Of a DNA stretch of 64,000 bases, positions 39,948-56,737 are shown piece by piece. Numbering within the stretch: position 1 is the stretch's first letter; every line of letters starts with the position of its first letter. The position numbers were made by a program, and so were the translations under genes. Origin of the DNA: a virus. Lineage: Duplodnaviria > Caudoviricetes. The notes under the pieces are model-generated. The model worked only from the letters and a program-made list of their open reading frames with translations, was not told where the DNA came from and searched no databases. The stretch spans positions 1-64,000 of the IMG/VR virus record IMGVR_UViG_3300028591_000072; one strand, given 5' to 3'.

Positions 39948-41105
39948 ATGGAAAAGAATTTTGTTCCAAATGTTCAGTGGATGTCTAAGAAGTATGACGA
40001 GATGAATGCCTGGTTGTTTAATGGAAAGTTGGGTAGGTGCATGTTTGACGTTTTCACGACAGGAAAGGGTTCTGGCGGAAATGTTCTTGGATGGTTTAAG
40101 ATAACGGGCCAAGGAATAAAGATTGATAGGAGGAATGGCAAGATGTTCCGTGACAATTATTTTGACAGGGAGTTTGTAAACCGTAACAATTTTGTTGCGT
40201 TATGCCAGCCAAAGATTGAACTGAATGGCAATTATCACGGAACCGAACATGGGTTTTTAAGCACGTTGGTGCATGAGATGTGCCATTATTACACATATAT
40301 GGAAGGATGGGCACCGAAGCAGGCTCATGGAAGAGAGTTTAGGGATATTGGTAGCGTTGTCGCTTCAAGGTCGAATGGAATGTTCACTGTACAGAGGATT
40401 GCCACGGCAGAACAAATGTCTGAACTTGAACTTAGCGATGAAATGAAAGCAAAGAGAGAAAAAAGGTTGGCCAACAAGAAAGCAGCAGTTAGTGCCGTTG
40501 TTGTTTTCAAGAATGATGGTGATGTTGAACTTACCATTACATCCAGCCAACCTGTCATTGATAAGATTAAAATGTATTATGAAAAATCAGGAGAAACCGT
40601 TGTAGTAAACAACAATTCGGACGTAATTGAATTTTTGTTTTCAAAAGGATATAAGAAGAATGTTCGCACATGGAGATATTGGAATCTTGAGGAAAAGCCT
40701 TGGCTTGATGAATTGAAAAATATGCTATTTGGGTTTGAGAATAATGCCGAAACTGACATTGATGGGCCTAAAAGTGAAGAAAATGTTGAGCCAAGTAAAA
40801 TATTCACAATAAAGACAAGTACGGGTACATTTGAATGTAATGCAGATTCAAAAGAACATTTAATAATTGCAATTAAACAACGTTTTCCAAAGATGAGTGA
40901 CGAGACAGTAGAAAAAGTTATAAACAACCCGGCAAATTACAAGGAAGCAACATCGTTCGTTAGGGAAGAAAGGAATATTCTGAAAGAGATACTTGATGAA
41001 TTCATTGAGAATGAAGGATTGAAAAACAACGGAATTGAAAACTGCGTTGAAATAAATCCTGATATGAATTTGGGTGAATATTCCCCATTAGAAATTAAAC
41101 AATAA
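39948..41105 (+). CDS. SprT-like metalloprotease
   Basis: N..LF.GKL, TLVHEMCHY, HG.EF. Confidence 0.8.
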   Translation: MEKNFVPNVQWMSKKYDEMNAWLFNGKLGRCMFDVFTTGKGSGGNVLGWFKITGQGIKIDRRNGKMFRDNYFDREFVNRNNFVALCQPKIELNGNYHGTEHGFLSTLVHEMCHYYTYMEGWAPKQAHGREFRDIGSVVASRSNGMFTVQRIATAEQMSELELSDEMKAKREKRLANKKAAVSAVVVFKNDGDVELTITSSQPVIDKIKMYYEKSGETVVVNNNSDVIEFLFSKGYKKNVRTWRYWNLEEKPWLDELKNMLFGFENNAETDIDGPKSEENVEPSKIFTIKTSTGTFECNADSKEHLIIAIKQRFPKMSDETVEKVINNPANYKEATSFVREERNILKEILDEFIENEGLKNNGIENCVEINPDMNLGEYSPLEIKQ

Positions 41106-41560: not shown

Positions 41561-44011
41561 TCAAATTTTATACAACCCAAGTTCTTTACTATAAGAATAT
41601 CCTTGTAGTAAGAATGGCCTATCGCTTCTGTTTGCCAATCCAACACATTTTTCTATGGTTGCATCGCCCCACTTCTTTATTCCATACACATATTTAAGTT
41701 CTTTATCCGTTGGGAAATTAAATCCTGTATTATTTGAAATCATAAAGTTATATCTTTCTTTGGACTCGATGCCGTTTGACTCTTCATCTAAGATATACGA
41801 ATCACATACGATTGGCTTCATATATTCACCACCGATTTTTGCTGTTACATATATATTATTGGAAGAACCACGATAAGACACTTCCTTTGACAAGCATTCA
41901 TAATCTTCGTTCACGAAAGAACTTCCACCTTTATATCTAATATTATAAAGTTCTTCTATGCTTGTTTTATAAAGTTTTGAAATGAAAAGTAAAAGTTGTT
42001 TTTCATTCTTTTTGTTGAACTCATTTCTTTCATTATACAATTCTGACTTTGTTATTTTAGTACCATCCATTGATGCAAGTCTGTCACACCATTTGCTTCT
42101 TAATTCATTATTGTATATACGATTTAAAAACCTATTATATTTTCTATTTGAATATAGAACAACGGTATAATTCACTTCGTCATATTCATTGAATCTTGAT
42201 GAACGTCCGCAACAAATTTGAACGGTACTTTCAGGTGTTGGTGTATAATGGATAATTGACATCGAAGAAATGTCAAGGCCAGTCCCAATAATAGGAGTAC
42301 CTATTACAGTTTTTTTGTCTTTTGATTCAAAAGTAGAATGCTTTCCATATAACTTATAAATCAATGATTCATTGTTATCTCTATCTTCTATTGAAAATCT
42401 TGCGTGTTCAAGAATAAAGTCACAGCCATTCTTTTTATGGGCAGTAAATAGGTTTTGTGCCAAATCAACTGTAGGTGCAATGGCAAAACAATTACAGTCA
42501 TTTTTTATTTCCAAGGATTCTGGAGTTTGGATTCTCTGTACATTAATATGAACCTTTGTATCACCACCATACACTTTAGATGGAATATATTCTGTTTTCC
42601 CACAGAATTTTTCGATTATGCCATTAAATCCACTTGCGCTTAAAAGCAACGTCTTTGCGTTAGTGTATTTGTTCCTTGCATAAAGCATATTAATGAAAGC
42701 GCCGAATATTGGTTCACCACAGAAGAATTCATGGTACTCATCAAAAATGATGTCACTAAAATAGCAATCCAAAAGGAAAGTTGACAATTCATTTCTTGAA
42801 TACCTGCTAAGGAATGTGTCAATGACAGAAACAACGATGTCACACTTTGAAACCGAATTTAATGGAATATTTGGCCCATCATTGAAATTGCACTTTTGAA
42901 TATCATTGCCATACATCAGGCACACTTTCACTTCATCGTTCATTCCCATTGTTTCCAATTCCGAAACAATTGAGCAGTAAGTTCCTTCAGCAATGATGGT
43001 TCTTGGAACAACCCACATCACCTTGCGACCAATTTCAAAATGGTACAACAAGCCAACAAGAGTTTTACCAAAGCCAGCAGAAGCGCCAACATCGCAAATG
43101 TTATGCTTGCTGTCTTTAATTTTATTCACAATACCACGCTGTTCCTGAAGTCTGCTTTCATCATAATGGCCCAAATCACACTTCTTGTTATAGGAGCTAA
43201 TTAAATGGTTTGTGAATATGCTTTTGATGTAATCACAATCCAAATTCAAGATTCTTTCATTATCAAATACCATTGAAGAAATGGCCCTGTCAGCATAGAC
43301 AATTAAAGCCCTGATGATTGCAAATTCCCAAGACTTATCCTGATACTTTTGTAGAGAACCCTGATAAGATGAGTTTTTCAATGGATTCAATAAAAAATTA
43401 TTAAGTGAATTGTCTGGTTCATTATAAACAAGTTCAGTTTCTATTTTAATTGGTGTTACCTCATCAATATCGCTAACATTATTCAAACAGAAATCTTTGT
43501 TAGTTGATACGCCAAATCCGAATTTTTCGTCAATATAAGACAGGCATTCGTTGTAAATTGACTTCATACTTTCAATACACTCGTTATCGCTAACAAGCAA
43601 ATCGCCAATAATGTCTGATGACTTTAATGAAAAATCGTCAATTACGGTGTGATGATACAAGATTGCAGAACGAATAGGTCTATACTTCGTTGTGCTAAGA
43701 GAACCAACAAATGAAGACGCAAATGCCCAAGAAATTGAATTGTGCCTGTAAAATCTGCAATTCTTTTTCAATGGATAAATTTCAATGCCCTCAGCATTGA
43801 TTCCTGAATTCTTGTTAATAATGTACTCTTGGAAATCTTTTGAGCACTTTCCAATGTCATGAAGTGCCGCCGCAATAGCAATTTTAGATAATAAATCGTT
43901 ATTTGTCTCTTTTAGGTTTTTTCTCGCCGTTTCTACAGCTAAATTGATAACCATCTTAGTGTGGTCAATTAAAGAAATTTTTGTTTCCCCATTAATTTTT
44001 GAAAATTTCAT
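41561..44011 (-). CDS. cas3: Cas3 HD nuclease-helicase (no Cas2 fusion)
   Basis: L.DH, LHDIGK, ILYHH, ADR; Walker A AGFGKT, DEYH, SAS, HARF, GLDIS, GR..R. Confidence 0.93.
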   Translation of the reverse strand: MKFSKINGETKISLIDHTKMVINLAVETARKNLKETNNDLLSKIAIAAALHDIGKCSKDFQEYIINKNSGINAEGIEIYPLKKNCRFYRHNSISWAFASSFVGSLSTTKYRPIRSAILYHHTVIDDFSLKSSDIIGDLLVSDNECIESMKSIYNECLSYIDEKFGFGVSTNKDFCLNNVSDIDEVTPIKIETELVYNEPDNSLNNFLLNPLKNSSYQGSLQKYQDKSWEFAIIRALIVYADRAISSMVFDNERILNLDCDYIKSIFTNHLISSYNKKCDLGHYDESRLQEQRGIVNKIKDSKHNICDVGASAGFGKTLVGLLYHFEIGRKVMWVVPRTIIAEGTYCSIVSELETMGMNDEVKVCLMYGNDIQKCNFNDGPNIPLNSVSKCDIVVSVIDTFLSRYSRNELSTFLLDCYFSDIIFDEYHEFFCGEPIFGAFINMLYARNKYTNAKTLLLSASGFNGIIEKFCGKTEYIPSKVYGGDTKVHINVQRIQTPESLEIKNDCNCFAIAPTVDLAQNLFTAHKKNGCDFILEHARFSIEDRDNNESLIYKLYGKHSTFESKDKKTVIGTPIIGTGLDISSMSIIHYTPTPESTVQICCGRSSRFNEYDEVNYTVVLYSNRKYNRFLNRIYNNELRSKWCDRLASMDGTKITKSELYNERNEFNKKNEKQLLLFISKLYKTSIEELYNIRYKGGSSFVNEDYECLSKEVSYRGSSNNIYVTAKIGGEYMKPIVCDSYILDEESNGIESKERYNFMISNNTGFNFPTDKELKYVYGIKKWGDATIEKCVGLANRSDRPFLLQGYSYSKELGLYKI

Positions 44012-44186: not shown

Positions 44187-45471
44187 ATTATGATTCCATT
44201 TTGGATAATAGTAATAAAAGCACACATAACAGGATATTGCACGTCACCAACATTTTGATTCCGTTTTAGATGATAATACTAAACATTTTCAAGTAATCCT
44301 TCATTTTCCTGTGCTTTGTTATGATTCCATTTAAAAAAGATAGTTTTAAAAATGCACTAATTTTATGCTTTGTGTCATCGCTATTGTGATTCTATTTCAG
44401 ATAATAGTAATAAAACGTTCAATTTGAGTGAACTGTCCGATAATACCATTGTGATTCCATTTTCGAAATATAGTAATAAAAGTATCAACGCAACGCAAAC
44501 CAGTTCGTGCCATGTTGTGATTTCATTTAGAATGATGGTACTAAATAGTTATAGCCAAATCCATGGATGTGTAATTGTTGTTGTGATTCCATTTAGAAAA
44601 ATAATAATAAACAGTTCGTTTTGGATTTGAGCATCTGACCAACCGTTGCGATTCCCATTAGAAAAATAGTACTAAACATTAGCGTTCCATCTTTTTGAGT
44701 AAAGACGTTTGTTGTGATTCCCATTAGAAAAATAGTATTAAATAACAAAATCTATCGTGATGCTCGTTATCGGGAGTTATGATTCCATTTAGAATAATAG
44801 TACTAAACAGTATCTCAAGCAGTTCTTACTCCAAGAGCTCTGTTGTGATTCCCTTTAGAATAATAGTACTAAACAGTTTGGGGCGTAACAGAGTTATACT
44901 CAGCACCGTTGTGATTCCCTTTAGAATAATAGTACTAAACAGTCCCTTATCAGCAAACCTTTATATGTATTTAGTTGTGATTCCCTTTAGAATAATAGTA
45001 CTAAACAGTATTTATAGAATTTTTTCAAGGTTTCTTGGTGTTGTGATTCCCTTTAGAATAATAGTACTAAACAGTAATGGTTTGATGGCTGTGAAGTGCA
45101 TCATAGTTGTGATTCCCTTTAGAATAATAGTACTAAACAGTTCCATCTGTTAGACTTGTTACACCCATATTGTTGTGATTCCCTTTAGAATAATAGTACT
45201 AAACAGTAAAGCAAATTGATAAGATTTATGAAACATTGTTGTGATTCCCTTTAGAATAATAGTACTAAACAGTGTAGGCAACAGTAGTGTGTTTGACCCT
45301 CACGTTGTGATTCCCTTTAGAATAATAGTACTAAACAGTTATGGTCTTTATGATAAACTTCACAGCCATGTTGTGATTCCCTTTAGAATAATAGTACTAA
45401 ACAGTATTATTCACCTTATCAACAACAGCACCTACGTTGTGATTCCCTTTAGAATAATAGTACTAAACAGT
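44187..45471 (-). CRISPR. CRISPR array: 20 repeats (36 bp) / 19 spacers (29-30 bp)
   Basis: 10 identical GTTGTGATTCCCTTTAGAATAATAGTACTAAACAGT from 44842 to 45436 (period 66) plus 10 degenerate copies from 44187 to 44776. Confidence 0.97.
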
Positions 45472-45517
45472 GTATTCTTTATAATTAAATAATTCACAGT
45501 CAGTTATAAAAGAATTA

Positions 45518-46627
45518 TCAATGAATTTTTGCCCATTCTGATTCATAATCTTCCCAGCATACTTCGTTTTTTTCATCCTTAATACAAACAACTTCACAAA
45601 TTCCTCCATCAAGGAAAGTGCAAAATCCTTTTCCGTTGAGCAGAGATTCGTAAATTTTTTCATTGTAGATAGGAACGATTATTTGTCCATTAACAGAAAT
45701 TCTCTTTATTTTATCACCAATGTTATTACGAAGATATGTTTTTGTTATGGTTCCATCTATCCCATAGCCATTTTTAAGGTCTGTATTTGAACTAACTGTC
45801 GGATTACCGTATCTAAAGACGTTGTAAAACCAAGCAGATTGGTTTCCGCCTTTATCCCAAAGAGAAACCATTTCATCGTAAAACTTTCCAACTTTTTCAA
45901 TATATGATTCATCGGAAGACATATTATGAAGCAGGTGAACCATTTCTCCAAATGTATATGTTTTTCTAACATCATTTACATTAAGAATTTCGTTGAGAAA
46001 TGAAATGAATCTAACATAACCTGGATGATTTTCATTGTCGTTAAAAAGTCTCAGCAACATTGAAAAGTCATAAGTTCCCGGTGCTGAAACCTTTTCACCA
46101 TTTTCATCGAAATAGAATATTGTTTCGCCACCACGGTTGCTATTGATGGCGGACTTCCTTGATTGCATAAATTCACCGCCACAATTGTTCATTCCATTAT
46201 TAACAATACCGTAATACTCACCATCTTCACCAACAATCTGTTTGATAAATACATTATCAGGGTCAATTGGGGATTTAAGTTTATAGTAAGAATTCTTAGC
46301 CATTTCGTCACAGGCTTCGATACGCTTAACTGGAAAACCATTCGCTTTATTTGGCTTTGTTGGAACAGGTATTCCACCAATAAGAGAAATGAGCATATTA
46401 CTTAGTGTTGTATATGGAATTGGGTTACCAATGTCATGGCCTTTCTTTATGAACTTAATATCAACACCCTCGTCTTCTGAAATTTTCTTTATTACATCGC
46501 TTTTCTTGGCAATTTTAGGTATAAGATGCTCGTACATCATTCCACCATTTCTAAGCCTAAGAAGCATATATTTTTTAAATTCACTCATATAATCATAAAA
46601 TTTATGGTGTGGGCCGTTATTACCCAC
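45518..46627 (-). CDS. cas5: enlarged Cas5-like subunit (Cas5fv / I-F2-like)
   Basis: N-terminal strand + PIPYTTLSNML..LIG; C-terminal VNGQIIV..GKGFCTFLDGGICEV; 369 aa with central helical insert; between cas7 and array. Confidence 0.65.
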   Translation of the reverse strand: MGNNGPHHKFYDYMSEFKKYMLLRLRNGGMMYEHLIPKIAKKSDVIKKISEDEGVDIKFIKKGHDIGNPIPYTTLSNMLISLIGGIPVPTKPNKANGFPVKRIEACDEMAKNSYYKLKSPIDPDNVFIKQIVGEDGEYYGIVNNGMNNCGGEFMQSRKSAINSNRGGETIFYFDENGEKVSAPGTYDFSMLLRLFNDNENHPGYVRFISFLNEILNVNDVRKTYTFGEMVHLLHNMSSDESYIEKVGKFYDEMVSLWDKGGNQSAWFYNVFRYGNPTVSSNTDLKNGYGIDGTITKTYLRNNIGDKIKRISVNGQIIVPIYNEKIYESLLNGKGFCTFLDGGICEVVCIKDEKNEVCWEDYESEWAKIH

Positions 46628-46650: not shown

Positions 46651-47778
46651 TTATTCTACCACTTCTTCAGATGGATTATTTTTTCCGCTTCTACGTGCCT
46701 TTTTTTCAGACTTTTTGTCAGCAGCCACTAATTTAGCCGCCTCAGCAGCCTTTTTGCGTCCTTCCCATTCTTGGTGGTTTGAAGGTTCATAATATTGGCT
46801 AATTTCAAAAACAGGAAGTTCGTCAACCGATTTAAGTTCAATCCAGCCCTCTTCATCATTGATGATGTCGTTGCAAGAGTAAATCGGCTTATATTCAACT
46901 TTTACAGTGTGAGCAATCGCACCGTTTTTAACAATGTTGATGTCCAAAAGGCGGCCAGCCAATGTTTTAATAAGATAATTAACAAACTCATCATCCATTT
47001 TTGCGCCATATTCTCCATATGATTCACCATAAATTTCGTTGTTTGAAGAAAACACCCCAACAGTGTACGGAATCCTTCCATATGTCTTCACAAATGCTTT
47101 TTCAAGGTAGTTGCAACCTTCAATGTATGAAGAAGGCACAGCCAATCTGTCAAAGTATTTATCAAAAGAAAGGAACTGAGCCGTTTTCACATCGAAATAA
47201 GAATCGAAAACATATTTTGTTCTACCAGTGGTTTCCTTATAGAAAAGAGAAGTATCATTTCTGTCACCTGATTTGGTGAACATTTCCATGTAAATGACTG
47301 CGCCTTCGTCAATTGCATCAGTTAAGTTAAAGCAACTTTTCTTTCCGAATGACATGTTCTTATCTGCACACATATAGCCACGTGAATATCCAAGAGGATT
47401 TGCAATAAAGTTGCAAGCAGCAGCAGGGAAATTCCAAATCATTGGGTCAGCGTCACATGTTCCTCCAAAAATTGCGTGTCTGATGCAATTGTAGGAAATT
47501 TTAAGGTTGTACCCAAATTCAGGAACTTTCTTCTTTGCTTCATCAATGCTAACGCCATTTTCTTCGGCATATTTTTCAACAGCCTCAATGTATGCTTCGT
47601 GGCTTTGATGAAGCCCATAAAATTCTTTCTTTGCAAAAGTTTGGTTGTCATTAAATGCATTACCTGCACAATGTCCGTTAATAAAAAATTTTTGGTCAGT
47701 ACTATCATAATTAACAACACCATGGCCGTTAAGTGTAGTGCGGAATTTCACCGCCAAAATTTTATTATTTTTTTTCAT
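46651..47778 (-). CDS. cas7: Cas7fv-like (type I-F2) backbone subunit
   Basis: GHGVVN, IS.NCIRH, G..RGY, R..TS.F.K.T.G.T.Y, QF.S.DK.FDR, GE.G match Shewanella Cas7fv as recalled. Confidence 0.85.
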   Translation of the reverse strand: MKKNNKILAVKFRTTLNGHGVVNYDSTDQKFFINGHCAGNAFNDNQTFAKKEFYGLHQSHEAYIEAVEKYAEENGVSIDEAKKKVPEFGYNLKISYNCIRHAIFGGTCDADPMIWNFPAAACNFIANPLGYSRGYMCADKNMSFGKKSCFNLTDAIDEGAVIYMEMFTKSGDRNDTSLFYKETTGRTKYVFDSYFDVKTAQFLSFDKYFDRLAVPSSYIEGCNYLEKAFVKTYGRIPYTVGVFSSNNEIYGESYGEYGAKMDDEFVNYLIKTLAGRLLDINIVKNGAIAHTVKVEYKPIYSCNDIINDEEGWIELKSVDELPVFEISQYYEPSNHQEWEGRKKAAEAAKLVAADKKSEKKARRSGKNNPSEEVVE

Positions 47779-47804: not shown

Positions 47805-48503
47805 TTAATTATTTAGTTTTTTAGTTGTAGCAAACCCAAATCCACATCCAGTAGAGTTTCCAAAGCCAAGGTTAATAAGTTTTTCCCTTGCGGCCTTTTT
47901 ACCCTTAATAACAAGCATAATTGTTGATGATGGGGTGATACTTTGGTTTTCACATCCGAATTTCAATTTAACAAGTTTCTTTTTCCAATTCTCTTTGTGG
48001 AATGGCTGAAATTTAATTGTATTCACATCGCCTTCGGAAATACCATTATTGATTAATTTCTTTTTACTGTGTTCTAAAAGAATATTCAAGAAATCTTCAT
48101 CATTGAATGTAATTTCTTTGTTTGTTTTTGGGCTTTTAAGCCTTATGTTCGTAATTCTTACAACATCATATAATCTAGAAGTCTTATTTGCAATACATTC
48201 AAACCCGATAAACTGCATTGTTTGTAATTTAAGGTCTGTTTGTTCGGATAATCCGCAAAGAAAATCAGATAGAAATTCTTCATTGTCAGAAGAGACGCAA
48301 AAAAAGCCTCCATTTTTGAATTGAATCATATTTGTGCCTTTGTCATATTTTCCACCATGCATTGTTGAAACAGAGTATGGAGAAAATGAATCGTGCCATT
48401 TGTTGTTTTTTCCCAAAACGGTATGAACAAACCCGTTCACATAGTCATTTGTCGGCTTGTCAAACAATTCCGTATTAGGAGCAAAATTTAATTTAATAAT
48501 CAT
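47805..48503 (-). CDS. cas6: Cas6 crRNA-processing endoribonuclease (canonical, not Csy4/Cas6f-like)
   Basis: HD...YSVS; C-terminal G-loop LGFGNSTGCGFG. Confidence 0.9.
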   Translation of the reverse strand: MIIKLNFAPNTELFDKPTNDYVNGFVHTVLGKNNKWHDSFSPYSVSTMHGGKYDKGTNMIQFKNGGFFCVSSDNEEFLSDFLCGLSEQTDLKLQTMQFIGFECIANKTSRLYDVVRITNIRLKSPKTNKEITFNDEDFLNILLEHSKKKLINNGISEGDVNTIKFQPFHKENWKKKLVKLKFGCENQSITPSSTIMLVIKGKKAAREKLINLGFGNSTGCGFGFATTKKLNN

Positions 48504-48530: not shown

Positions 48531-49322
48531 TTATTTTTTTATAATTTGTTTCTCATCAAAAACCGTGTCAAACTTTTCAAATTGTGTTTTTAAGACAAAA
48601 ATTTTTTCGTTTTTTTCTCCATTGTTTGAAGACATTCCATCTTGCATTTTCTTTTGGTATATTGGAATAAAGTCAGATGGGGCATTGTATTCACTAATCA
48701 TTAATATATGGCCATCATTTGCTGTTTTTCTGCACCAATTCCAAAATTCTTCATTGTCGAAGTTTATTTTATAACCTTTTGTATTACCATATGGAGGGTC
48801 ACAATATATAAATGCTTTTCCTTTTACATGGTCCATGATTGATTTGTAGTCACAGCAAATGAAGTCTGTGTTATTTATCTGTTTGAAACCGTTTATTTGC
48901 TTAACAGTGCCGCTATATGCTTCATATATATGGTTTTCGTTTTTATTTGGATTGTAATTTGCGTATCCATTCCACCAAGAGCCTCCATATGAACAAGCAC
49001 AACCCACATATCCTATTATGGAATCTTTATATCTACCTGTTTTGTTTTTGTAGTCTTCTTTTACATCATAATATTGTTCTTTGGCCAAATACTTAACAAA
49101 GGTCCACATATCTTCAGTAAAATTGCCATTCTTTACATCATTCCAAAACGCTATGACGTATTGGTTTGTGTCACATGTCAGTTTCTTGTTGAAATCAATT
49201 GCCGACAAACTGTTTGCGCCACCACAAAATGGTTCAATATATGTTGTGCATCCTTCAATACCCTTTGCGACAAGGCTATTGATTATTTTCGTCATTTTCT
49301 TTTTGCTTCCCTGGTATCTCAT
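48531..49322 (-). CDS. Dam/D12-class DNA adenine methyltransferase
   Basis: MRYQGSK, YIEPFCGG, YCDPPY, ISEY. Confidence 0.9.
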   Translation of the reverse strand: MRYQGSKKKMTKIINSLVAKGIEGCTTYIEPFCGGANSLSAIDFNKKLTCDTNQYVIAFWNDVKNGNFTEDMWTFVKYLAKEQYYDVKEDYKNKTGRYKDSIIGYVGCACSYGGSWWNGYANYNPNKNENHIYEAYSGTVKQINGFKQINNTDFICCDYKSIMDHVKGKAFIYCDPPYGNTKGYKINFDNEEFWNWCRKTANDGHILMISEYNAPSDFIPIYQKKMQDGMSSNNGEKNEKIFVLKTQFEKFDTVFDEKQIIKK

Positions 49323-50121
49323 AATTAAAGTCTTTAATGATGTTAAATTTTGGTTGGCCGTATTCGTTTATTAATTCATTTAATCTAAATTTTGTTTTTT
49401 TGTCTTTTTCAGCAATTAATACTTTTCCTGTTTTGTCTAATTCTTTTTTATTATATATGATATATTCAATGACTCCGTTTTTATCAATTTCATCTTGCAA
49501 TATTTTTTCTTTCCTCATTGCATTTAGCCTGTCTCTTAGTAGACTTTCATTTTCTTTTGCATAAAAGAAAAATGACTGAGGCTTAACTTGCATATACCTA
49601 ACATACGATGGGTCACTATGCTTTTTTATTATAAAGTCAATTCCAATTTCAGCATCAAGTTTCCCAACACATGGCTCAACAATAAAGTCATCTGAAGATT
49701 CCAATATGAACGAGACCATATACCTTTCCACAAAGTGCCCGTCATATGTTTCAGTTATTATATGATTAACCAAATCATCATAGCAGTCCTGTATTGTTAC
49801 ATTGGAATTTTTATCTTTTTTTATTATTGATTCATAATAACATTTTGCAAGATACTTCAATTGTTCGACACTTCTTCCAAAATTTTCATTACCTTTGTGA
49901 TTCTTATATGAAAACTCGTCATTATAATACGCTGTGTATTTGTTGAAAAAATCTTCAGGTGATGTCGGATGTAGTATTTTATAAAGATAAGAGCAATTTC
50001 CGACATATGGCCTTCCTGAAAATTTATTCCTGTATATTAGACTATATTTTTCGTTGAATTTCTTTTTTACCTTTTCATAATATTCTTTTTCTTTAAATGA
50101 ACAATCTATATTTATATCCAA
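49276..50121 (-). CDS. MjaI-like PD-(D/E)xK restriction endonuclease
   Basis: R..VG..S, II.ETYDG, D...GIDF...QVKP.SF; overlaps MTase start. Confidence 0.6.
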   Translation of the reverse strand: MDINIDCSFKEKEYYEKVKKKFNEKYSLIYRNKFSGRPYVGNCSYLYKILHPTSPEDFFNKYTAYYNDEFSYKNHKGNENFGRSVEQLKYLAKCYYESIIKKDKNSNVTIQDCYDDLVNHIITETYDGHFVERYMVSFILESSDDFIVEPCVGKLDAEIGIDFIIKKHSDPSYVRYMQVKPQSFFFYAKENESLLRDRLNAMRKEKILQDEIDKNGVIEYIIYNKKELDKTGKVLIAEKDKKTKFRLNELINEYGQPKFNIIKDFNYEIPGKQKENDENNQ

Positions 50122-55409: not shown

Positions 55410-56737
55410 GTAATCGGGAAAACCCACTACTTTAGTGATGGGATGAAAGCGAACTCACCTTCTTTTTTGTAAATATACAATTTTTTTACAAAAAATCAAA
55501 ACTTTTTGTAAAAACAAACTATTTATATGTAGAATGAAGGAAATTTACAAATCATACAAATTCAGAATCTACCCGAATAAGGAACAACAAGTCGTCCTTG
55601 CCCGGTATTTTGGCTCTGTGTGTTTTGTGTATAACCATTTCCTTGCTGAACGGAAACGACAATACGAAGAAACAAATTCTTCGGATAATTACTACGCACA
55701 GGCGAAGGCGCTGACGGAGCTCAAGCACTCTGAAGAATTCTCGTGGCTATCCGAAATCAATTCCCAAACCCTACAGCACGCTCTTCGTCATCTTGAAACA
55801 GCATATGTCAATTTCTTCCGTGGAAATGCAAAGTTTCCATCATTTAAATCAAAGAAAGCCAAGAACAGTTTTACGGTTCCACAGCATTGTACAATATCAG
55901 GTAACAGAATCTATATTCCTAAGTTCAAAGAAGGCATTAAGGTAAGGGAACACCGAAAGGTTAATGGTATTGTAAAGAGTATGACAATTTCTTTGACACC
56001 GGACGGTAAATACTATGTTTCCATCCTATCAAAAGAAAATTGTGAAACTATAGGCAAAACCGGTAAGGTGGTAGGTATTGACTTGGGCTTGAAGGATTTC
56101 GTCATTACATCCGATGGAAGGAAGTATAAGAACCATCGTTACATAAAACAATATGAAAAAGAGTTAGCGACAGCACAAAAACATCTCTCTCGTAAACAAT
56201 ACGGCAGCAATTCCTATGAAAAACAAAGAAGAAAGGTTGCCAGGATACACGAGAAAATAGCCAACTGTCGTATGGACAATCAACACAAAGTTTCTCTTGA
56301 TTTAATCAGAAACTACGATGTTATCTGCTTAGAAGACTTAAACATCAAGGGAATGGTTAAGAACAGTCGCCTGGCAAAAGCAATCAACGATGCCTCATGG
56401 GGACAATTTGTTTCAATGCTTACCTATAAGGCAGAACTAAATGATAAACAGGTTGTTAAAATAGATAGGTGGTATCCTTCGAGTAAAACCTGCCACAATT
56501 GTGGGTGGGTTAATGAAGGCTTAAAACTATCAGACAGGCAATGGGATTGCCCTCATTGTGGCGAGGTGATAGACAGAGATGTTAATGCCGCTAAAAACAT
56601 CCTCTCAGAAGGATTAAGAAATATATCGGTGGGGCACACCGATTACACTGATGGAGGCATAGTAAGACTCAGCAATGAGCATCAGCCCGTGAAGTCAGGA
56701 AGAAGCCCACGATTTTAATTGTGGGAGTCTATGTCAC
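55410..56737 (+). mobile_element. IS1341/IS605-type tnpB-only element
   Basis: left hairpin aaacccactactttagtgatggg; right end aagcccacgattttaattgtgggag...TCAC. Confidence 0.75.
55534..56718 (+). CDS. tnpB: TnpB RNA-guided endonuclease
   Basis: YKFRIYP HTH; GIDLG, EDL, PSSKTC..CG..CPHCG, DRD.NAAKNI. Confidence 0.95.
   Translation: MKEIYKSYKFRIYPNKEQQVVLARYFGSVCFVYNHFLAERKRQYEETNSSDNYYAQAKALTELKHSEEFSWLSEINSQTLQHALRHLETAYVNFFRGNAKFPSFKSKKAKNSFTVPQHCTISGNRIYIPKFKEGIKVREHRKVNGIVKSMTISLTPDGKYYVSILSKENCETIGKTGKVVGIDLGLKDFVITSDGRKYKNHRYIKQYEKELATAQKHLSRKQYGSNSYEKQRRKVARIHEKIANCRMDNQHKVSLDLIRNYDVICLEDLNIKGMVKNSRLAKAINDASWGQFVSMLTYKAELNDKQVVKIDRWYPSSKTCHNCGWVNEGLKLSDRQWDCPHCGEVIDRDVNAAKNILSEGLRNISVGHTDYTDGGIVRLSNEHQPVKSGRSPRF

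Follow-up and report, generated by a model that had tools for sequence, protein, structure and literature searches.

A type I-F2-like CRISPR locus of a huge gut or rumen phage may obtain its spacers from host type II-C adaptation proteins

[quoted passage not shown] The VI-B and II-C repeats share a GTTGT leader-distal end, the two arrays have opposite directions of transcription, and the end of the spacer on the side of the protospacer adjacent motif (PAM) faces the leader; in other species the II-C repeats are ~11 bp longer than those of VI-B (PMC8092290). [quoted passage not shown] In canonical type I-F2 systems the repeats measure 27 bp and the spacers 32 bp, and Cas2 is fused to Cas3 (PMC12956352). 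Here we describe a CRISPR array and its cas operon in the first 64 kb (64,000 nucleotides, hereafter the window) of the IMG/VR virus record IMGVR_UViG_3300028591_000072 (Caudoviricetes), which measures 302,581 bp and is ~82% complete by CheckV. The phage is huge (~300 kb) and from rumen or gut, and the array belongs to a pared-down type I CRISPR system. We propose, with a probability of roughly 0.55, that the Cas1-Cas2 of a II-C-bearing host would write spacers into this array in trans, and that the phage Cascade would read the other strand. To our knowledge, adaptation in trans has been demonstrated only between systems within one bacterial genome.

The locus is a minus-strand operon in the order cas6-cas7-cas5-like-array-cas3, with all neighbouring cas genes on that strand (Table 1). 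The I-F2 character of Cas7 comes from an NCBIfam match that lies under the curated cut-off (80 versus 200 bits) and from a comparison of its profile with the Protein Data Bank (PDB), which finds the Cas7 of the Shewanella I-F2 Cascade structures 5o6u and 9g44 (E 3e-23). The protein in the Cas5 position has no match in Pfam, NCBIfam or PADLOC, and its family profile is without a match in the PDB. Cas3 starts at the HD domain; it covers positions 116-853 of the 951 of the Cas3fv profile, and over its residues 20-619 it aligns with the Cas2-truncated Cas2-3f2 chain of 9g44, beginning at chain residue 29; on these alignments the protein is without the Cas2 domain used by I-F adaptation. The effector module is best explained, from its gene content, as a phage-borne, Cas8-less, I-F2-like type I system (Cas6, Cas7, Cas5-like protein and Cas3) without adaptation genes. 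It resembles the I-F2 system of Shewanella putrefaciens CN-32 (PDB 5O6U, 5O7H, 9G44) in a Cascade that lacks Cas8 and Cas11, in its homologous Cas7, in the large protein in the Cas5 position and in a Cas3 closest to Cas3fv in PADLOC. It differs in the absence of Cas1 and of the Cas2 domain of Cas3, in a Cas6 of the general or Cas6b kind instead of Cas6f, in 36-nt repeats and 30-nt spacers as against 27 and 32, and in the position of the array between cas5 and cas3. With ICP1 it shares a compact phage-encoded interference module related to type I-F, but it has no Cas1 or Cas2/3 of its own.

The array is composed of a young block and an old, decaying half. The identical repeats of the young block begin at 44842, 44908 and so on to 45436, at a period of exactly 66, and those of the old half carry 2 to 10 substitutions each, rising with distance from the young block, with spacers of 29-30 nt. 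These measurements bear out an earlier note on this DNA, which had described 36-bp repeats and 30-bp spacers (29-30 in the old half) with the pristine repeats at the 3' end of the GTTGTG orientation; the array does, however, extend beyond the coordinates given in that note (44842-45471), back to 44187. On the plus strand the repeat starts GTTGTGATT and ends AAACAGT, and on the minus strand its 3' end is GGAATCACAAC. The pristine block forms the high-coordinate end of the array, with 46 bp between it and the stop codon that closes the next minus-strand gene upstream. No further copy of the repeat outside the array turned up in a fuzzy search of the 302,581-bp genome. Transcription of the array from the minus strand is suggested by the flanking cas genes together with the invariant minus-strand 3' end of the repeat in seven related arrays.

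Like the VI-B arrays served by II-C, the phage array has no cas1/cas2 in cis, 36-nt repeats, 30-nt spacers and GTTGT at the leader-distal repeat end; as in VI-B, it would be transcribed from the leader, opposite to II-C, with the PAM-side end of the spacer towards the leader. Unlike VI-B, its effector is a class 1 DNA-targeting Cascade with Cas3 and not Cas13b, the array lies on a phage and not on the chromosome of the donor system, and the case is known from sequence alone. Unlike the VI-B arrays of Hoikkala et al. (PMC8092290), the phage repeat also shares its leader-proximal AACAG end, and the array its leader, with II-C. The locus agrees with the huge-phage systems surveyed by Al-Shayeb et al. 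(PMC7162821) in belonging to a huge phage and in having no Cas1, Cas2 or Cas4. The proposal made there concerned phages without interference and integration genes whose repeats are like the host's own type; the present phage, unlike those, combines a complete type I interference module with a leader and repeat like those of II-C, a type of the other class, and the leader likeness is quantified here. What is new, on a view that we favour slightly, is that a class 1 DNA-targeting effector on a phage would be the client in a known kind of cooperation in trans.

Relatives of the phage Cas7 at 50-75% identity sit on gut and rumen metagenome contigs, and the gene order cas6-cas7-cas5-like-array-cas3 is the same wherever a related contig reaches that far, the array lying between the cas5-like gene and cas3 in all four related loci that reach cas3 (L001, L003, L005 and a 290-kb contig). 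Seven arrays of this family are readable: all have 36-nt repeats and mostly 30-nt spacers, and in all of them pristine repeats adjoin the cas5-like gene and long degenerate tails face cas3. On the cas strand all seven repeats end GGAATCACAAC, except for the newest units of L005, which end in T. The first 11 nt of the repeat, GTTGTGATTCC, are kept in six of the seven, the newest L005 units beginning ATTGTG, and the AACAG end is exact in four, with one or two substitutions in the others. The trailer halves are unusually long in the window, L001, L003, L005 and L137, where about ten progressively decayed repeats keep the 65-66-bp period and the old units have been neither deleted nor homogenised. 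The cas6-cas7-cas5-array module is found in phage-like contigs of 32% to 50% GC content (L002, L003 and L007 compared with the window), and has therefore spread across phages of differing composition with its II-C-like repeat ends kept. Neither the exact repeat nor the family repeat pattern was matched in a scan of IMG/VR, and a scan of JGI metagenomes returned one related array (L137) and four chance matches. For Cas7, a back-translation scan of IMG/VR gave nothing, GenBank phages gave no match and 401 sampled Bacteroidota genomes gave none; more distant Cas7 relatives (L140-L143) are on short contigs, in which neither arrays nor adaptation genes would be visible.

The comparison with bacteria used a scan of one genome per prokaryotic species for repeats that start GTTGTGATT and carry AACAG just before a ~30-nt spacer. 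It returned at least 120 stretches, and almost every one of those listed came from Bacteroidota or a related group. Among the matches listed, the bacterial arrays mostly have 46-47-nt repeats and some have 36-nt repeats (six of the loci with cas9-cas1-cas2), with spacers of 30 nt; of the 65 loci in which cas genes can be seen, 63 have the array immediately downstream of cas9-cas1-cas2. Since GTTGTG is on the strand opposite the cas genes in these II-C loci, the AACAG end faces cas2. Of the complete arrays among the matches listed, 29 have their degenerate terminal repeat at the GTTGTG end and 2 have it at the opposite one, which identifies the AACAG end as the variable one and agrees with the polarity that the earlier note stated for II-C arrays, namely growth on the AACAG side. 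The phage arrays have the same polarity as the bacterial ones, the window repeat having both GTTGTGATT leader-distal and AACAG(C/T) leader-proximal, with spacers of 30 nt and the variable end on the AACAG side. They do not share the 46-47-nt repeat, the phage repeat being 36 nt long, or the cas9-cas1-cas2 neighbours and trans-activating CRISPR RNA (tracrRNA) anti-repeat of II-C arrays. The likeness to Bacteroidota II-C repeats asserted previously was sustained against more than 100 fetched arrays and is concentrated at the repeat ends, the phage repeat being identical to the best 36-nt bacterial repeats at 24-30 of 36 positions. The II-C-like geometry on which the earlier note was built is indeed present but is not diagnostic, because a leader beside the cas operon with pristine repeats next to it is the normal type I arrangement too.

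The strongest new evidence concerns a feature that the earlier note did not examine, the leader, which resembles II-C leaders position by position. For 69 bacterial II-C loci among the matches listed, the 46 nt immediately after the AACAG end were compiled into a position weight matrix, this width being that of the intergenic leader of the phage. Bacterial II-C leaders score 13.1 +/- 7.4 and random 46-mers of the phage genome, taken as the null, -13.8 +/- 6.9. The leader of the window scores 11.6 and those of L005, L001, L007 and L003 score 10.8, 7.8, 5.9 and 2.7, all five being within the bacterial range. The fraction of random 46-mers that score as high as the phage leaders is 1e-4 to 7e-3 (p = 1e-4 for the window, against shuffles as well), shuffles of each phage leader give p from <1e-4 to 2.4e-3, and in 5000 trials with column-permuted matrices the true score was attained 0-10 times. 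When 25 offsets were compared, each phage leader scored highest at offset 0. The match draws on both halves of the leader, and the signal derives from the II-C loci with 47-nt repeats, not from the seven with 36-nt repeats; phage trailer flanks and a type I-C leader, used as controls, stay at the null level. An inverted copy (at most 2 mismatches) of the last 12 nt of the repeat is present in 24 of the 69 bacterial leaders, at a median of about +62 from the last repeat and preceded by a conserved TTAGAAT/A-run, and may be the start of the tracrRNA anti-repeat or a leader-repeat hairpin. The phage leaders lack this copy, and none is found close to the phage arrays.

A Bacteroides metagenome-assembled genome (G001) has a single cas1, of type II-C, a 47-nt-repeat array and at least three orphan arrays of a derivative 36-nt repeat, which equals the 47-nt II-C repeat minus 11 internal nt and has 30-nt spacers (Table 1). 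One of the orphan arrays has 14 repeats and a II-C-like leader that scores 12.5. The neighbours examined beside the orphan arrays are not cas genes and encode RuvC, a pullulanase and a hybrid histidine kinase; the kinase is the product of a 1016-amino-acid gene between 36-nt arrays that had been considered as cas13b, a candidate that was rejected. The presence of the orphan 36-nt arrays and of a single II-C cas1 in one genome indicates that such satellite arrays seem to be maintained by the 47-nt-repeat II-C module.

In the cycle that we propose, infection of a II-C-bearing Bacteroidota host would lead its Cas1-Cas2 to insert 30-bp prespacers at the leader-proximal repeat, with duplication of the 36-bp repeat, and host Cas9 would probably choose the PAM during insertion. 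As synteny suggests, transcription of the array would come from the cas5 side and follow the minus strand, in the direction opposite to II-C reading; Cas6 would cut 8 nt before each spacer and leave AUCACAAC as the 5' handle, and Cascade, judged from homology, would find DNA targets and recruit Cas3. Since the PAM-side end of II-C spacers faces the leader, the PAM would fall beside the 5' handle, as type I Cascade needs. The check by PAM side put forward in the earlier note (3' Cas9-type versus 5' type I) is unable to separate the models, since flipping the strand makes the two sides the same. The earlier note had held that the repeat is recognized by the adaptation machinery in one orientation and processed by Cas6 in the other; integration acts on double-stranded DNA, and what can be retained is a pair of opposite transcription directions, as for VI-B and II-C (PMC8092290). 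Its sequence-level predictions that could be tested all held, and its interpretation is partly supported. A more elaborate version, which we put forward tentatively and at somewhat less than even odds, is that the type I reader (Cascade and Cas3) is all that a lytic jumbo phage retains, and that the phage mimics the leader and repeat of the host II-C array so that host Cas1-Cas2-Cas9 write spacers into its genome during infection, its Cas5-like protein having evolved to read the reverse complement of the Cas9 PAM.

Cas6 processing as envisaged here would act on a minus-strand repeat that does end AUCACAAC, and the segment invariant across the family is the site of the would-be 8-nt 5' handle, which is thus plausible. 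The TTTAG/CTAAA hairpin with which this handle had been paired is present but not established: its predicted energy is -4.2 kcal/mol (z = -0.6), 53 of 200 shuffles fold as well, four of the seven family repeats are predicted to fold in this way and the other three are not, and an alignment fold does not recover it. Rfam contains no family that matches the repeat.

The arrays themselves carry signs of change at the leader end. In the window ten identical leader-side repeats stand against individually mutated older ones, and in L005 a variant repeat is common to the seven newest units only; a variant confined to the newest units and identical leader-side repeats are what would arise were the leader-proximal repeat the template for each new one. 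A contig of 290,684 bp with 100% identical Cas7 and Cas3 has a cas5-cas3 gap of 1176 bp as against 1506 bp in the window, a difference of exactly 5 x 66 bp (330 bp) as read from gene coordinates. Across the leader-side units runs a spurious open frame, of 127 codons in that contig and 83 in the window, so that leader-side content differs between these near-identical phages. The arrays would thus appear to have grown in a polarized fashion, at the leader end, without adaptation genes in cis.

Several points weigh against supply of the array by host II-C proteins. The record is ~82% complete, and the 330-bp difference between the near-identical phages might have arisen by deletion instead of gain. 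The phage leaders resemble those of II-C arrays with 47-nt repeats, yet the phage repeat has 36 nt, and a ruler set for 47 nt would have to copy 36 nt; this puzzle has also been noted for VI-B (PMC8092290). The conserved positions of II-C leaders could function in transcription or in expression of tracrRNA instead of in integration, and the five phage leaders are mutually related and hence not independent tests. The bacterial comparison set was chosen by the same repeat ends in which the likeness is concentrated, and the internal 21 nt of the repeat are significantly similar only in L137 (p = 0.003) and L003 (p = 0.023), with 0.057 for the window. The Cas6 hairpin is weak. Compared with the phage genome, the 2020 spacers of the fetched bacterial arrays produced no match above 20 nt in length and no host link, and no protospacer was found for any spacer of the phage family, hence no PAM.

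Two other explanations are each unlikely in our estimation. The leader and repeat could be a relic of capture, copied from a host II-C-derived array, with the II-C features now unused and the spacers serving as fixed guides that change by recombination or deletion. The orphan 36-nt arrays with II-C-type leaders in the Bacteroides genome are possible donors, a deletion would account for the 330-bp difference, and the lack of protospacers means that there is no sign of recent targets. Against a relic, the leader motif is in register across phages whose Cas7 proteins are 50-75% identical and whose GC content ranges from 32 to 50%, the spacer set is different in every relative, and the identical leader-side blocks and the variants of the newest L005 units are the footprint of repeated duplication at the leader end.

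Self-sufficient adaptation, by cas1-cas2 in the unassembled part of the genome or by an unrecognized phage integrase, with the II-C likeness due to convergence or shared ancestry, is likewise improbable. The incompleteness of the record leaves room for it, Cas2 is small and easily missed, and many of the phage genes are of unknown function. Profile searches, including Pfam, found no Cas1, Cas2 or Cas4 in the 302-kb record, however, and tblastn of Bacteroides II-C Cas9, Cas1 and Cas2 against the same record gave chance matches only, in accordance with the previous claim that the phage is without cas1 and cas2. No cas1 or cas2 was seen beside the effector genes of the related loci fetched, or in the gene table of the near-identical 290-kb contig, which covers ~21 kb around the locus, and Cas3 has lost the Cas2 domain used in I-F adaptation. 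That reading of the array goes in the GTTGTG direction as well, or in that direction instead, giving RNAs that pair with host tracrRNA and load host Cas9 as decoys or donated guides, is very improbable, for although the repeat agrees with II-C repeats throughout its first 9 nt and again in CTTT at positions 12-15, no tracrRNA-like anti-repeat is found near the phage arrays where 24 of the 69 bacterial leaders have their inverted copy at about +62, the array is inside a type I operon in every relative, and the most conserved segment of the repeat is its minus-strand 3' end, as expected of a Cas6/Cascade handle.

The coordinates of the locus and of its neighbours are collected in Table 1. Directly upstream of cas6 the methyltransferase gene overlaps a gene for a 281-amino-acid protein with a weak match to a type II restriction enzyme (PADLOC 1e-4), a possible restriction-modification pair joined to the cas operon. 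The gene for a SprT-like protein just past cas3 is kept as a neighbour of the locus in the near-identical contig.

Table 1. Positions of the array, the cas genes and neighbouring genes in the window, and of the orphan arrays in the Bacteroides genome.
Feature	Position	Strand	Description and basis
385-amino-acid protein	39948..41105	+	SprT-like metalloprotease domain
Cas3	41561..44011	-	HD nuclease-helicase without Cas2 domain; PADLOC Cas3fv 1.6e-39
Old, decaying half of array	44187..44811	-	Trailer end beside cas3; 10 repeats, period 65-66
Young block of array	44842..45471	-	10 identical 36-nt repeats, 9 spacers of 30 nt
Leader	45472..45517	-	46 bp between the stop codon of the cas5-like gene and the first (newest) repeat
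Cas5-like protein	45518..46627	-	369 amino acids, in Cas5 position of I-F2-like Cascade; position conserved in all related loci
Cas7	46651..47778	-	I-F2 (I-Fv) kind; NCBIfam Cas7fv 1.4e-22; PADLOC Cas7fv 2e-21
Cas6	47805..48503	-	Endoribonuclease, general or Cas6b kind, not Cas6f; Pfam Cas_Cas6_C; TIGR01877 9e-11; PADLOC Cas6b 7e-22
Methyltransferase and overlapping 281-amino-acid gene	48531..50121	-	Dam-class N6-adenine methyltransferase, Pfam 2.8e-22
394-amino-acid open reading frame	55534..56718	+	At the equivalent position of the near-identical contig, annotated IS605 OrfB/TnpB (Cas12f1-like TNB domain)
Orphan 36-nt array, Bacteroides G001 (L061)	contig C60 16035-16927		
Orphan 36-nt arrays, Bacteroides G001	contig C88 44526-44697, 49230-49522		

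The signals of the host fit Bacteroidota. A Shine-Dalgarno core at -20 to -5 is present in 8 of 186 long phage genes (4%), the same 4% as in a control interval, and the upstream regions are A-rich, A making up 50-65% of bases at -16 to -10. The absence of Shine-Dalgarno sites together with A-rich upstream regions is typical of Bacteroidota, and the samples are of gut or rumen. A helicase-like open reading frame compared with cultured phages gave no host signal. As to targets, the spacers of the window array gave chance matches only against GenBank phages, and the arrays of L003, L001 and L005 gave either no match there or AT-rich matches outside spacers. A match of L005 to a crAss-like phage was rejected as a protospacer since it sits in the intergenic region between array and cas3. 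The 24-nt cores of two of the three newest spacers are absent from IMG/VR, and the family spacers searched against the phage genome and all fetched loci yielded only artefacts of a loose repeat pattern.

The locus bears on how the adaptation-less CRISPR systems of huge phages obtain their spacers, and offers a concrete, testable case in which a phage class 1 effector appears matched to class 2 (II-C) integration in repeat ends, spacer length, polarity and leader. The 46-bp leader and 36-bp repeat define a DNA substrate for integration assays, and the likeness of repeat and leader could serve in matching such phages to their hosts; with its four genes and 30-nt guides, the compact effector may have practical interest as well. 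If supply by host II-C proteins is true, a PAM relationship is predicted between host Cas9 and phage Cascade, and a virus would be outsourcing its immune memory across CRISPR classes.

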